Virus genome (UHGV): UHGV-0140246
Source: a virus
Reading direction: 5' to 3' (one strand)
DNA: 13,672 nt
Under the pieces are notes generated by a model. The model saw nothing but the letters and a program-made list of their open reading frames with translations, was not told where the DNA came from and did no database searches. Shown here piece by piece: positions 2,560 through 6,154 of the stretch. Positions within the stretch are counted from its first letter, which is position 1, and each line of letters begins with the position of its first letter. Made by a program: the position numbers and the translations under genes.

Positions 2560-2763
2560 ATGGCTCAATTTGACCGCATAATCCGTGAGGCTGAATGCAG
2601 TAAGTTAACCGGGGTTAGCCGTACCACTCGCTATGAACTGGAGAAAAAAGGGAGCTTTCCGTCTCGCCGTAATCTTGGTGGGCGTTCTGTAGGTTGGTTG
2701 CTTTCCGAAGTTATGGACTGGGTGCAAAACCGTGACCGAGTTAATTCAGGTAAGGCAGCATAG
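2560..2763 (+). CDS. alpA: AlpA-family phage transcriptional regulator
   Basis: Internal ATG at 2560 preceded by GGGGGAG Shine-Dalgarno; translation MAQFDRIIREAECSKLTGVSRTTRYELEKKGSFPSRRNLGGRSVGWLLSEVMDWV fits the AlpA pattern (LTG-SR-T-Y, G-FP, GGRSV-W, EV-W). Confidence 0.7.
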   Translation: MAQFDRIIREAECSKLTGVSRTTRYELEKKGSFPSRRNLGGRSVGWLLSEVMDWVQNRDRVNSGKAA

Positions 2764-2776
2764 GGGGAGTGATGGC

Positions 2777-2808
2777 ACATAAAACAAAGGCGACCGGGGG
2801 CGGTCGCC
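2777..2808 (-). terminator. Candidate rho-independent terminator for the leftward (minus-strand) transcript
   Basis: Perfect 8-bp GC-rich stem GGCGACCG/CGGTCGCC with a 4-nt loop at 2789-2808; on the minus strand it is followed by TTTGTTTTAT (complement of 2779-2788). Confidence 0.45.
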
Positions 2809-2902
2809 AATGGATACACACTAAACTTGAACGCATCACCAACAATGCCACATTTGCGGCTGGTGGGCAATGTGATCAGTGTGCTGGCTTGCTGGTTGGC
2901 TG

Positions 2903-3085
2903 TCAGCCTTTGGGTTCTATGCCTTCTTTGCGTAGCTTATCACGACAAGCATTTTTTACCCATGAGCTGAAATTACCAGGCCCTGCAACTTCGTTAATTT
3001 GTTGCAACAATGTGTCTTCGAAGCGGATGTTTTTCTTTGTGCTGCCGGAGCGATCAAATTTTGGTTTCACATTTTCTTCTTGCAT
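2903..3085 (-). CDS. Small divergently transcribed DNA-binding-like protein (possible ribbon-helix-helix fold); candidate repressor
   Basis: 60-aa minus-strand ORF MQEENVKPKFDRSGSTKKNIRFEDTLLQQINEVAGPGNFSSWVKNACRDKLRKEG; predicted strand-helix-helix arrangement is my inference; its start codon abuts the palindromic operators. Confidence 0.5.
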   Translation of the reverse strand: MQEENVKPKFDRSGSTKKNIRFEDTLLQQINEVAGPGNFSSWVKNACRDKLRKEGIEPKG

Positions 3086-3107
3086 TGGTACGTACCATCG
3101 TTATAAA
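3080..3107 (+). promoter_or_regulatory. Candidate sigma70 promoter for the rightward icd-to-primase operon
   Basis: -35-like TTGCAT (3080-3085), 16-bp spacer, -10-like TATAAA (3102-3107); the spacer is occupied by operator copy 1; the -35 match is weak. Confidence 0.35.
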
Positions 3108-3130
3108 CTGAAATCAAATGGTACGTACCA
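3086..3130. promoter_or_regulatory. Two copies of a perfect 12-bp palindrome TGGTACGTACCA (3086-3097 and 3119-3130), centre-to-centre 33 bp; candidate paired operators
   Basis: Read directly; each copy is its own reverse complement; located between the divergent minus-strand gene and the icd-like gene. Confidence 0.65.
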
Positions 3131-3160
3131 CATTAAAAATACGCAACCATTAAATACAGC

Positions 3161-3195
3161 GAAGCCCGGCAGTGCGGGAACACTAACCGGGCTTC
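3161..3195. other. Perfect 9-bp inverted repeat GAAGCCCGG-N17-CCGGGCTTC in the leader upstream of the icd-like gene; candidate RNA stem-loop or protein-binding site
   Basis: Read directly from sequence; no U-tract follows on the + strand. Confidence 0.4.
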
Positions 3196-3230
3196 TAACC
3201 ACCAACGATAGAAAGCGTATCGAGGTAGCT

Positions 3231-3434
3231 ATGTTAAATCATACCACACACCCGCAAGGGCGGGACTCGCACAACCTGAATAAATACATCTGGCGTTTTA
3301 TCGCCCTGAGCACGGCACAACCGCGCGTGATTACCATTGAGGCCACCAGCGAACAGGAAGCACGCCAGCAATCCCCGGCTGGCTGCGTGATGGTATTCGC
3401 CGCCCGTATTCGTCAGGGGGTGTGCCATGCCTGA
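3231..3434 (+). CDS. Icd-like small protein (host cell division inhibitor-like, as found in P4-type elements); assignment from memory
   Basis: Internal ATG at 3231 of the 2769-3434 ORF, preceded by GAGG at 3222-3225; translation MLNHTTHPQGRDSHNLNKYIWRFIALSTAQPRVITIEATSEQEARQQSPAGCVMVFAARIRQ. Confidence 0.5.
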   Translation: MLNHTTHPQGRDSHNLNKYIWRFIALSTAQPRVITIEATSEQEARQQSPAGCVMVFAARIRQGVCHA

Positions 3435-3747
3435 TATGTCAAATTACCAGTACCTGATTAATCCGCATTTTAACTGTGAGCATGATATTGCTAAAAAGGT
3501 TTATTCCGCTGCGGATGGGGCTACTGACAATATATCAATGGCTGTTGCGTCAATTGGTAGCCTGATGTGGCATGCGTCAGAAAATGAGGACTATGACGAA
3601 AAGGCCATGCGCATTGATATGGGTAATATTGGTTTGTTACTGGCAATGCTTGGACATTTTGATATTTCGTTACGGTGCACCATTGAAAATGCCACAGATG
3701 CATTAAATGCTATAAAGAAAGCGAATACTGATTCAAATCGGGGATAA
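3427..3747 (+). CDS. Hypothetical protein (106 aa)
   Basis: ORF overlaps the icd-like stop (ATGCCTGA); AGGGGG Shine-Dalgarno 7 nt upstream; lower GC than neighbours by eye. Confidence 0.55.
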   Translation: MPDMSNYQYLINPHFNCEHDIAKKVYSAADGATDNISMAVASIGSLMWHASENEDYDEKAMRIDMGNIGLLLAMLGHFDISLRCTIENATDALNAIKKANTDSNRG

Positions 3748-3753
3748 ATAATC

Positions 3754-4053
3754 ATGAGAACATATTTATCTGGCTTGACTGCCAGCGGTTATGCACACCC
3801 CAAAATTATCCCCGGCGCTATTTATCTGGATAAGAACGGTAACAGAGTAACGGTAAAAGAACTGATGTTTGACCGTGTGTATTTTATTCGTGATGGCTAT
3901 TCATTTCATAGTTCGCTGAACGTGGAGATCTTTATTAGCAGATTCAGGCGGGAAATCCCGCTTTCCAGAAAAAACCATGTGTCACGTGTGAATGTGGATA
4001 AAAAACTACAGGAACTGAAAAACATGATTGCCGCGTGGAGAGAGCAGAAATGA
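3754..4053 (+). CDS. Hypothetical protein (99 aa)
   Basis: ORF whose stop overlaps the start of the primase gene (ATGA at 4050-4053). Confidence 0.55.
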   Translation: MRTYLSGLTASGYAHPKIIPGAIYLDKNGNRVTVKELMFDRVYFIRDGYSFHSSLNVEIFISRFRREIPLSRKNHVSRVNVDKKLQELKNMIAAWREQK

Positions 4054-5867
4054 AAAAAGCGCCAAATTTAAAACACCAGCCGCGTGACAAAATGACGGAA
4101 GTCATCATTTTTGCGGGTAGTGATGCGTGGGCACATGCGAAGCAGTGGCAGGAACAGGACGGGCGACTGGCTGGCGATAACGTGCCTCCTGTCTGGCTTG
4201 GAGAGCAACAACTTGCCGAACTGGACAACCTGCAAATCGTACCGGACGGACGCTATCGCGTGCGTCTCTATCAGGCGGGGTTATTGCGTCCGGGGCTTGT
4301 TAATACCATCGGGCAGAAACTGGCAGCGGCAGGTGTCAGGGATGCTGATTATTACCCTGAAGGAATGCACAGCCAGAAACGGGAGAACTGGCGCGAATAT
4401 CTGGAACGTGAGCGGGGAGAGCTGGCGGAAAAGAAAAAGGTAGTTGAACTGCCTGTAAAGAAAAAAGAGCGGGTAAAAGACGATAACGCTTCATCACTGG
4501 CGCTTAACCAGATGGGAGCAAGTCAACGCGGCGAAGTTCTCCTGGCACATTATGGCGGTGAACTGGCGATTCATGCCGACTCTGACACTGTTCACCATTA
4601 CAACGGCGTTGTATGGGAGCCGGTTCAGGATAAAGAGTTACAGCGTGCTATGGCGCAGATTTTCATTGATGCGGAGATCAGCTATTCGCAGAACGCCATT
4701 AAATCGGCGGTCGATACCATGAAGTTAAGTTTGCCTGTAATGGGGAATACAGCCCGTAACCTGATTGGATTCAGTAACGGGGTATTTGATACCAGAACAG
4801 GTAATTTTCGGGAGCATAACAAAAACGACTGGTTGTTAATTGCCAGTGAATTACCTTTCAGCCCACCAGCAGAGGGGGAAACGCTGGCAACACATGCGCC
4901 GAATTTCTGGAAGTGGTTACGCCGTTCGGTGGCTGAGAATGACCGCAAGGCGGATCGCGTACTGGCTGCATTATTCATGGTGCTGGCGAACCGGTACGAC
5001 TGGCAGTTATTCATTGAGGTAACAGGTCCAGGGGGAAGTGGTAAAAGCGTGATGGCGGAGATTTGCACCATGCTGGCGGGTAAGGCCAACACAGTATCGG
5101 CAAGCATGAAGGCGCTGGAAGATGCAAGGGAACGCGCGTTAGTGGTTGGCTTTTCGCTGATTATCATGCCGGATATGACCCGCTACGCTGGTGATGGGGC
5201 AGGGATTAAGGCTATTACAGGCGGTGACAAGGTGGCAATTGACCCGAAACACAAAGCCCCCTACTCAACGCGTATTCCGGCAGTAGTGCTGGCGGTTAAC
5301 AATAACGCCATGTCATTCAGTGACCGCAGTGGGGGGATCTCACGTCGTCGGGTGATATTCAATTTTTCGGAAGTTGTACCGGAGAACGAACGTGATCCAA
5401 TGCTGGCGGAAAAAATAGAAGGTGAGCTGGCGGTAGTGATTCGCCATCTGCTTACACGGTTTGCTGACCAGGACGAAGCCAGACGCCTGTTATATGAGCA
5501 GCAGAAATCTGAAGAAGCACTGGCGATAAAGCGAGAGGGGGATTCGCTGGTGGACTTCTGCGGCTATCTCATGGCGTCGGTAATGTGTGATGGCCTGTTA
5601 GTGGGTAATGCTGAAATTGTGCCATTCAGCCCACGCAGGTATCTCTATCATGCCTATCTGGCTTATATGAGGGCACATGGGTTTGGTAAACCTGTAACAC
5701 TGACGCGCTTCGGTAAAGATATGCCGGGGGCAATGGCGGAATATGGCAGGGAGTATATGAAACGGAAAACGAAGCACGGTTTGCGTTCAAACGTGACACT
5801 GACGGAGGAATCAGAAGACTGGATGCCATCATGTGTATCGGTCACTAATGACGATAGCAAAAATTAA
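4050..5867 (+). CDS. Primase/helicase replication protein (P4 alpha-like, P-loop NTPase); start probably ATG 4050 rather than GTG 4035
   Basis: About 605-aa ORF; Walker A motif TGPGGSGKS in the central region; GGAGAG Shine-Dalgarno before ATG 4050; an iteron cluster lies immediately downstream. Confidence 0.7.
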   Translation: MKKAPNLKHQPRDKMTEVIIFAGSDAWAHAKQWQEQDGRLAGDNVPPVWLGEQQLAELDNLQIVPDGRYRVRLYQAGLLRPGLVNTIGQKLAAAGVRDADYYPEGMHSQKRENWREYLERERGELAEKKKVVELPVKKKERVKDDNASSLALNQMGASQRGEVLLAHYGGELAIHADSDTVHHYNGVVWEPVQDKELQRAMAQIFIDAEISYSQNAIKSAVDTMKLSLPVMGNTARNLIGFSNGVFDTRTGNFREHNKNDWLLIASELPFSPPAEGETLATHAPNFWKWLRRSVAENDRKADRVLAALFMVLANRYDWQLFIEVTGPGGSGKSVMAEICTMLAGKANTVSASMKALEDARERALVVGFSLIIMPDMTRYAGDGAGIKAITGGDKVAIDPKHKAPYSTRIPAVVLAVNNNAMSFSDRSGGISRRRVIFNFSEVVPENERDPMLAEKIEGELAVVIRHLLTRFADQDEARRLLYEQQKSEEALAIKREGDSLVDFCGYLMASVMCDGLLVGNAEIVPFSPRRYLYHAYLAYMRAHGFGKPVTLTRFGKDMPGAMAEYGREYMKRKTKHGLRSNVTLTEESEDWMPSCVSVTNDDSKN

Positions 5868-5878
5868 ACTTATGGAAT

Positions 5879-6111
5879 AACTGTTCACCACTGTTCACCC
5901 TGTCATAAATATCTTTTGTATCAGTATGTTATAGGGTGAACAGTTATTTATGAACTGTTCACCAAACTATTCACTGTTCACCTTTTTGATTGTTTATTGA
6001 GCTTCAAGGGTGAACAGTGGTGAACAGTTGGTGAATAGTTTTTGTGAAACTGTTCACCCCTTAACATTATGAATTAAAAGATAAAATATCAAAAGGTGAA
6101 CAGGTGAAGGG
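5879..6111. repeat. Iteron cluster, candidate origin of replication: about 11 copies of TGTTCACC / GGTGAACA in both orientations within an AT-rich intergenic region
   Basis: Forward copies at 5882-5889, 5892-5899, 5956-5963, 5975-5982, 6051-6058; reverse copies at 5935-5942, 6009-6016, 6019-6026, 6095-6102; degenerate copies at 6030-6037 and 6104-6111. Confidence 0.75.
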
Positions 6112-6154
6112 TTAAAACGCAAAAATTTTAATTTACTGCTGTGAGATAAAGCCT

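Follow-up and report, generated by a model that had tools for sequence, protein, structure and literature searches.

A conserved hairpin upstream of an icd-like gene as the predicted terminator of a sar/SymR-like cis-antisense RNA in PICI-type phage satellites

What is the role of a perfect inverted repeat that lies directly in front of an icd-like gene in a phage satellite, and on which strand does it act? The window analyzed here, a stretch of 13,672 nt from the virus genome UHGV-0140246, carries such a repeat at positions 3161-3195. The first-pass annotation had described it as a 9-bp perfect stem with a 17-nt loop in the leader of a rightward icd-like operon, with no following U-tract, and had read it either as part of a structured leader RNA of the P4 type or as a protein-binding dyad. 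Coordinates and sequence are exactly as described there: the arms GAAGCCCGG (3161-3169) and CCGGGCTTC (3187-3195) enclose the loop at 3170-3186, and the hairpin is located 35 nt upstream of the ATG (3231-3233) of the icd-like gene. It is also true for the plus strand that there is no U-tract, since the sequence 3' of the hairpin, TAACCACCAA, contains one T in 10 nt. Dinucleotide-shuffled versions of the window contain 0.90 ± 1.0 perfect 9-bp stems with loops of 3-20 nt, at least one such hairpin occurs in 57% of the shuffles, and six distinct perfect 9-bp hairpins are present in the actual window. A bare 9-bp hairpin is thus at chance level, and the case for this one rests on conservation. In every homologous island examined, the hairpin was found at the same exact position and with compensatory changes. 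It occurs in 36 sequence versions, one of which has wholly different arms (GAGGCTG...CAGCCTC) beside an unchanged, otherwise near-identical leader.

The genomic context is that of a phage satellite. Across 2900-3440 the window is 99.6% identical to an island of Escherichia coli D8, which encodes, in this order, an integrase, a DUF6387 protein, an AlpA-type regulator, an ORF6N protein and the divergent YlcI/YnfO gene, followed by the Icd-like protein, a hypothetical gene, DUF4222, a P4-type primase and SSB, and at its end the major capsid protein, prohead protease, portal, head-tail connector, HNH endonuclease and the small and large terminase. This island is a capsid-encoding, PICI-type phage satellite. 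In the window, Pfam/NCBIfam models identified the integrase (1-1422), AlpA (2509-2763), DUF4222 (3754-4053) and the primase-helicase (4035-5867). Two further elements were observed outside the leader. A perfect 10-bp hairpin at 2259-2288, AAACCAGATA-N10-TATCTGGTTT followed by TTCC, is located 40 nt past the end of the open reading frame at 1419-2219 and is possibly a terminator between the integrase module and alpA. In the A+T-rich gap directly after the primase-helicase gene (end 5867), eleven copies of a 10-11-nt iteron, GGTGAACAGT(T), are arranged in both orientations at 5879-6113; this array is probably the replication origin of the island.

The hairpin and the icd-like gene form a widespread module. 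Megablast matches were obtained in 1441 of 5426 complete E. coli genomes, which is about a quarter, with 1762 E. coli copies in total, and the carriers include Nissle 1917 and CFT073 (with the EcCICFT073 island), in which the RNA predicted below would map to NC_004431.1 ~1380774-1380851 on the minus strand. In most matching genomes homology starts at about window position 3159-3161, i.e., at the outer edge of the hairpin. The repressor/operator region to the left is completely different between islands that have the hairpin and icd module in common; it is a separate, exchangeable module.

The icd-like gene (3231-3434, plus strand) encodes a protein of 67 aa, which matches NCBIfam NF033153 with 69.8 bits and is annotated accordingly in the RefSeq entry of the D8 island. 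It heads the rightward operon and is followed by a hypothetical gene, DUF4222 and the primase-helicase gene. Its Shine-Dalgarno sequence GAGG can be read directly at 3222-3225, 5 nt before the ATG. From the sequence we place a candidate sigma-70 promoter for this operon, TTGCAT-16-TATAAA, at 3080-3107 on the plus strand. A consensus scan of 2700-3600 did not report it; better promoters are found at the equivalent place in CFT073 (TTGACG-18-TATAGT) and in Edwardsiella (TTGACG-17-TAGATT). With the promoter at this site, the hairpin lies within the mRNA leader, which supports the location assigned by the first-pass annotation. Two identical perfect palindromes, TGGTACGTACCA, are located 33 bp apart at 3086-3097 and 3119-3130 and could be operators flanking the rightward promoter. 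The divergent gene at 2903-3085 (minus strand) belongs to the YlcI/YnfO (DUF3950) type (NF041551, 31.1 bits; PF13132, 33 bits), and its product is putatively a small repressor, possibly with a ribbon-helix-helix fold. Taken as candidate elements, the promoter, the palindromes and the divergent gene resemble an immI-type switch. The icd reading frame on the plus strand is open far upstream, from 2769 to 3434, across the hairpin and the divergent gene, and many Icd-like proteins in the databases have 92-117 aa instead of 67, with 25-50 extra N-terminal residues. These long entries are probably due to mis-called starts, so that the gene calls would have to be corrected, as the N-terminal extensions run through the predicted RNA gene that is described below.

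In order to find out which strand carries the conserved structure, we compared the leaders of about 310 related loci. Four Icd-like queries against IMG/VR and a search of GTDB representative genomes supplied these loci, which comprise 91 distinct leader variants. The GTDB/contig search with the Icd-like alignment yielded two of the loci, one from Edwardsiella and one from Pantoea. For each variant, the interval from the hairpin through the base preceding the ATG was folded on both strands. The more stable fold is that of the minus strand in every one of the 91 variants, with a mean of -35.3 versus -22.5 kcal/mol and a smallest gap of 6.1 kcal/mol; for the window the values are -40.6 and -29.4 kcal/mol. 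The same two stem-loops form on the minus strand in all 91 variants. The first one (3197-3230, nt 1-34 of the predicted RNA) is recovered by folding, covariation and RNAalifold and consists of an outer helix AGCUACC/GGUGGUU, an inner helix CGAUA/UAUCG and a 7-nt loop, whereby the outer helix contains two G-U pairs that are present only on the minus strand. The second one (3161-3195, nt 36-70) is seen by folding, covariation and a match to sar and is the hairpin itself, extended on the minus strand of the window to about 15 pairs, GAAGCCCGGU(U)AGUGU-UCCC-GCACUGCCGGGCUUC, with 14-16 pairs across the variants.

Covariation across homologous islands, which the first-pass annotation had named as a check, was analyzed on 44 distinct sequences and 22 well-aligned pairs of the homologous leaders. 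On the minus strand 97.7% of the stem cells are paired, compared to 80.1% when the same pairs are read as plus strand. G-U pairs make up 18% of the minus-strand cells, and the asymmetry arises because these turn into A-C mismatches on the plus strand. It is most pronounced in the outer 5' helix (96.8% versus 68.2%) and in the lower stem of the hairpin (97.3% versus 78.4%), where both sides have changed at 6 of 10 pairs, whereas pairing is possible on either strand in the 9-bp hairpin core and in the inner CGAUA/UAUCG helix. Overall, two-sided changes were found at seven pairs (62 cells), together with 27 further pair types. For example, the inner pair 11-23 is A-U in E. coli, U-A in Pantoea and C-G in Edwardsiella-related loci. 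None of 500 column shuffles reached any of the observed measures, and pairing fell to 31-54% of cells when the 3' partners were slid by 1-3 columns. RNAalifold independently recovered the same two stem-loops. A covariance model of the minus-strand structure scored 91.7 bits on the minus strand of the window and 11.9 bits on the plus strand. The apical part of the hairpin was left out of the pair counts and judged from per-sequence folds, because the MAFFT alignment is inconsistent there, the helix register shifting by 1-2 nt between types. As most homologues are recombining E. coli islands, the cell counts overstate the number of independent events; independent support comes from the distinct hairpin types and from the three genera Escherichia, Edwardsiella and Pantoea. 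The compensatory changes exceed the controls, as is typical of a structured RNA under selection, and the conserved structure belongs to the minus strand.

A minus-strand RNA needs a start and an end, and candidates for both are present at the borders of the structure. Read leftward, the beginning of the icd-like gene is 5'-TGgTATGAT-TTAACAT-A, in which TGgTATGAT (3246-3238, minus strand, within icd codons 3-6) is a predicted extended -10 promoter, called from sequence reading and conservation. The 7-nt stretch that follows ends in CAT, the complement of the start codon, and the A is position 3230. We predict the RNA start at 3230 ± 2, abutting the icd ATG. The TGn and the -10 hexamer are kept in 295 of 297 loci; variants of the hexamer are TATTAT, TATAAT, TATAGT and TACGAT, with T1, A2 and T6 retained in all, and the substitutions hold or improve the match. 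There is no convincing -35 for this promoter in the window, where GTCCCG is found at that place. The diversity at third codon positions is 0.034 in icd codons 4-12 and five-fold higher, at 0.172, in codons 13-65. This constrained stretch (3240-3266) overlaps the antisense promoter and extends upstream of it, and it shows few differences or none in the Edwardsiella and Pantoea loci, although the proteins are only 53% and 44% identical. That it is so well kept despite the divergence of the protein points to a nucleotide-level constraint overlapping the coding sequence, even though the conservation of the first 12 codons could partly come from protein constraint, with HPQGRD being invariant. A small perfect hairpin, CCCGC-AAGG-GCGGG, was also noticed at 3251-3264 (icd codons 7-12), just upstream of the antisense -10. 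Its synonymous sites hardly vary between genera, and it may serve as an element upstream of the promoter, as a structure in the mRNA or as a site for a protein.

At the other end, the hairpin is followed on the minus strand by the U-rich tail GCUGUAUUUAAU (3149-3160), which was assigned from sequence reading and tail comparison and has 5 U in its first 10 nt. Averaged over 39 distinct minus-strand tails, the first 10 nt contain 5.05 U (range 3-8). The combination of a G+C-rich stem of about 15 pairs with this modest U-tract makes a terminator candidate. Neither the antisense promoter nor the hairpin terminator was picked up by the scan of 2700-3600 for sigma-70 promoters and terminators, which demands two hexamers and a loop of at most 8 nt. 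With the scanner silent, both calls rest on sequence reading and comparison. The promoter and the U-rich tail together would give an RNA from 3230 to about 3150-3157, the 3' end lying inside the tail, with a length of about 75-80 nt. We infer that the hairpin at 3161-3195 is the 3' terminator stem-loop of this predicted minus-strand cis-antisense RNA and assign a probability of about 0.7 to this reading. In addition, we propose that it stabilizes the RNA. The RNA would be complementary to the entire proximal icd leader, including the Shine-Dalgarno sequence GAGG.

It could also be that the hairpin acts in the sense icd leader, where it might stabilize the 5' end, direct processing, be recognized by an RNA-binding regulator or belong to an attenuator, and that there is no antisense RNA at all. 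The hairpin is indeed inside the predicted leader, the plus strand folds below the shuffled expectation (z -3.37), and neither the 9-bp core nor the CGAUA/UAUCG helix is confined to one strand. As the plus-strand mRNA also forms the core 9-bp hairpin, some role in the sense leader would be expected even of an antisense target. On the other side, the A-C mismatches degrade plus-strand pairing to 78% in the lower stem and 68% in the outer helix compared to 97% on the minus strand, the plus strand has the weaker fold in each of the 91 variants, and attenuation would call for a plus-strand U-tract, which is lacking. A purely sense-strand role would also leave the conserved leftward extended -10 in the coding region unexplained. 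We therefore consider it unlikely.

The protein-binding dyad of the first-pass annotation, for which AlpA or the YlcI/YnfO repressor might be suggested as ligand, would agree with a perfect inverted repeat in a regulatory intergenic region. Yet the half-sites are not conserved, since 36 versions of the arms stand beside near-invariant flanks, and RNA-type pairing is kept while the arm sequences vary freely, also by G-U wobble, which is meaningless for a site in duplex DNA. Separate perfect palindromes that would suit an operator, the two copies of TGGTACGTACCA, are located upstream. The dyad was rejected as very unlikely.

The idea of a structured leader RNA has to be divided. RNA-level control of the operon is likely the theme of this locus, but a plus-strand RNA of the P4 CI or P1 C4 type, processed from the leader and acting on downstream target sites, is not what was found. 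A minor correction concerns the icd gene, which belongs not to P4 but to the immI operon c4-icd-ant of P1, where Icd is a cell-division inhibitor and ant is fully repressed only with the help of the sense-strand C4 RNA (PMC8198154). This classical control of icd in P1 (PMC8198154) speaks for a C4-type RNA, as does its occurrence near relatives of the icd-like gene of the window: in seven more distant Icd-like loci from IMG/VR (L164-L171), a sense-strand C4 (RF01695, 73-89 bits) and isrK (RF01394, 68-84 bits) are located upstream of the gene, at about 1195-1476 of each locus, with c4-a1b1 (RF03163) additionally in two of them. Together with a hybrid island described below, these loci are the positive control for the Rfam search. 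Against it, a search of 2850-3500 for C4, isrK and c4-a1b1 remained empty at E≤10, as did one of the whole window at gathering score, the close class of the window (L084, L085, L087-L089) has neither C4 nor isrK at E≤10, and the conserved structure is on the opposite strand. On these negatives a C4/CI-type leader RNA was rejected as highly improbable. A chance hairpin without function, of which about 0.9 would be expected per window, can practically be dismissed in view of position-specific conservation and compensatory change across Escherichia, Edwardsiella and Pantoea.

Families related to the predicted minus-strand RNA were searched for in Rfam. At gathering score, Rfam has no family for the element in the window or in 17 related loci. 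In E-value mode, SymR (RF01809) matched over its full length (1-77) on the minus strand at 3230-3158 with 34.8 bits (E 8.6e-5), which is below its gathering score of 61. Positions 33-64 of sar (RF00262), its terminator half, matched the hairpin locally on the minus strand with 17.7 bits (E ~1), below the gathering score of 43, and the model remained unmatched beyond the terminator hairpin. Conversely, when our model was searched in the K-12 and P22 loci, the best hits fell on the annotated coordinates and strands of symR (13.7 bits, E 0.018) and sar (10.9 bits, E 0.14), with E-values that are roughly calibrated. Such scores are too weak for family membership, but they are consistent with a common design and a shared terminator hairpin. 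In the indexed literature, searched for Icd-like, PICI, EcCICFT073/AlpA, sar/P22/ant and sequence strings of the RNA, no description of the RNA was found, and the words antisense, sRNA and icd are absent from two PICI papers (PMC6092414 and another).

How might such an RNA work? We suggest that leftward transcription would begin at TGgTATGAT in icd codons 3-6, start at about 3230 and cross the icd Shine-Dalgarno sequence and leader; the transcript would fold into the two stem-loops and end at the hairpin and the U-rich tail. Its complementarity to the icd leader would be complete, so that it would anneal to the icd mRNA, probably by an initial loop-loop contact, and would block ribosome binding at the first gene of the replication/packaging operon. 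In this way the potentially harmful Icd-like protein might be silenced against leaky transcription during quiescence of the island. The downstream primase and packaging genes could possibly be silenced as well, by lost translational coupling, Rho-dependent polarity or cleavage of the duplex. Polarity on downstream genes is drawn from the P1 system. Once the island is induced, the operon would be transcribed strongly enough to titrate the RNA away or to occlude the convergent promoter from which it comes. That a constitutive antisense RNA represses icd translation in this manner, by analogy with sar and SymR, has in our estimation somewhat better than even odds.

The 7-nt apical loop of the 5' stem-loop (3211-3217; CGCUUUC on the minus strand, GAAAGCG on the plus strand) is a diversity hot spot. 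Its nucleotide diversity is 0.363 compared to 0.012-0.020 in the flanking stems, and 19 different loop types occur, which assort freely with the hairpin types. This pattern is that of a recognition or specificity loop, for which we regard it as a candidate. In genomes with two islands the loops differ in four of four cases, but we did not count this as evidence because chance could easily give the same outcome; a rough estimate with about nine common loop types puts the probability of that outcome by chance alone above one half. In the founding paper on Gram-negative PICIs, AlpA was identified as an activator, and whether there is a repressor was described as unclear (PMC6092414). If a conserved antisense RNA covers the ribosome-binding site of the first gene, the silence of PICIs would be secured by an additional, post-transcriptional lock. 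It is a tempting, though rather doubtful, extension that the antisense RNA is the missing negative regulator of these elements and that the hypervariable 7-nt loop and the variable terminator loop form a specificity code. If so, islands with the same loop would silence each other, which would amount to RNA-based immunity or incompatibility among satellites, and islands with different loops would coexist and be induced independently.

The antisense RNAs of plasmids offer a first comparison. CopA of R1 and RNA I of ColE1 are antisense RNAs built of stem-loops, and their specificity, and thereby the incompatibility group, is determined by the sequence of the loop. The likeness lies in the loop, which in the window family is a diversity hot spot between invariant stems. 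There is no homology, however, the target process is another one, and loop specificity is here a candidate property.

A second comparison is with the C4 RNA of P1/P7 and the CI RNA of P4 (RF01695, clan CL00128). C4 blocks icd translation, which in turn prevents transcription of ant. The predicted RNA of the window would likewise be a repressor of icd translation initiation that heads the operon, and C4 in P1 has downstream polarity. Both occupy the same position upstream of related icd-like genes (PMC8198154 for P1). In contrast, C4 is a sense-strand RNA, processed from the leader and acting by short complementary loops, and it has no sequence or structure match to the RNA of the window. Both types meet in a hybrid island of E. 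coli strain 167 (NZ_CM132939.1, 2496-3111), in which a sar-like unit (83.4 bits, minus strand) is followed by icd codons 1-18, to which an ash-like pseudogene is fused, and then by isrK, C4 and a second icd-like gene. The hybrid island retains the segment from the hairpin through icd codon 18 as a single block, and such mobility of a block from the hairpin to about codon 18 is the pattern of an RNA gene with its own promoter. The distant loci with C4/isrK and the hybrid island imply that two unrelated RNA regulators alternate at the same position. In the island class of the window, C4 appears to be replaced by an unrelated cis-antisense RNA. Homologous icd-like genes that are guarded either by C4/isrK or by a sar-like RNA would represent a non-orthologous replacement of an RNA control element. 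Under the doubtful extension given above, this alternation, the hybrid island included, would reflect repeated swapping of non-homologous RNA immunity modules.

The closest likenesses are to SymR and sar. SymR of E. coli is a 77-nt cis-antisense RNA with two stem-loops, which covers the 5' end and the ribosome-binding site of a gene with a harmful product, is made constitutively and mops up leaky mRNA; an apical GUGUU..GCAC motif is common to SymR and the predicted RNA. It differs in its target symE, which is unrelated, chromosomal and SOS-regulated, whereas here the target is icd-like, and in its start, which is inside the coding region, 3 nt beyond the start codon. The symE/symR pair is located elsewhere, in the hsd region of K-12.

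In the P22 record (NC_002371), sar begins at the base beside the ant start codon, its promoter Psar is within the first codons of ant, and it ends in a terminator hairpin, the sequence being TGcTATACT-ATTCAT-G(+1)...GAAGCCCUGACUGUUACCGCAGUUGGGGCUUC-AACUUUA. The window geometry corresponds to this layout in the 5' end (with a predicted start site), the promoter, the ribosome-binding site and the hairpin as candidate terminator. With a length of about 70 nt, sar is a cis-antisense RNA made of two stem-loops, as the predicted RNA would be. Like that of sar, the predicted 5' end adjoins the start codon of the target, an extended -10 without a good -35 is within the first codons of the target, and the ribosome-binding site would be covered. 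The base of the sar terminator hairpin, GAAGCCCUG...GGGGCUUC, is near-identical to that of the window hairpin, and the proven sar terminator has a tail, AACUUUA, whose run of U is comparably weak to that of the window. Differences are that sar targets the antirepressor gene ant in the immI region of a P22-like phage, whereas here an Icd-like gene (NF033153) of a PICI-like island is concerned, that the 5' stem-loop of the window cannot be aligned with that of sar, and that the 5' loop is hypervariable in the window family. The only phage hit to the window, the P22-like phage JEP4, has a sar-type antisense unit upstream of its Rha gene (MT740315.1, 2512-2586, minus strand), whose 5' half aligns with sar and whose hairpin GAGGCCCGGUUUGUGUUCGCGCACUGCCGGGCUUC, followed by ACUAUUUUUAUU, is of the window type; judged by its sequence, this unit bridges sar and the RNA of the window. 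It misses the sar gathering score in Rfam, and sar is not listed for it even at E≤10, so that RF00262 seems too narrow for relatives of sar. Overall, the comparison suggests that the RNA, whose transcription we infer, belongs to the cis-antisense translational repressors of the sar/SymR kind, with a host element and a target that are both new.
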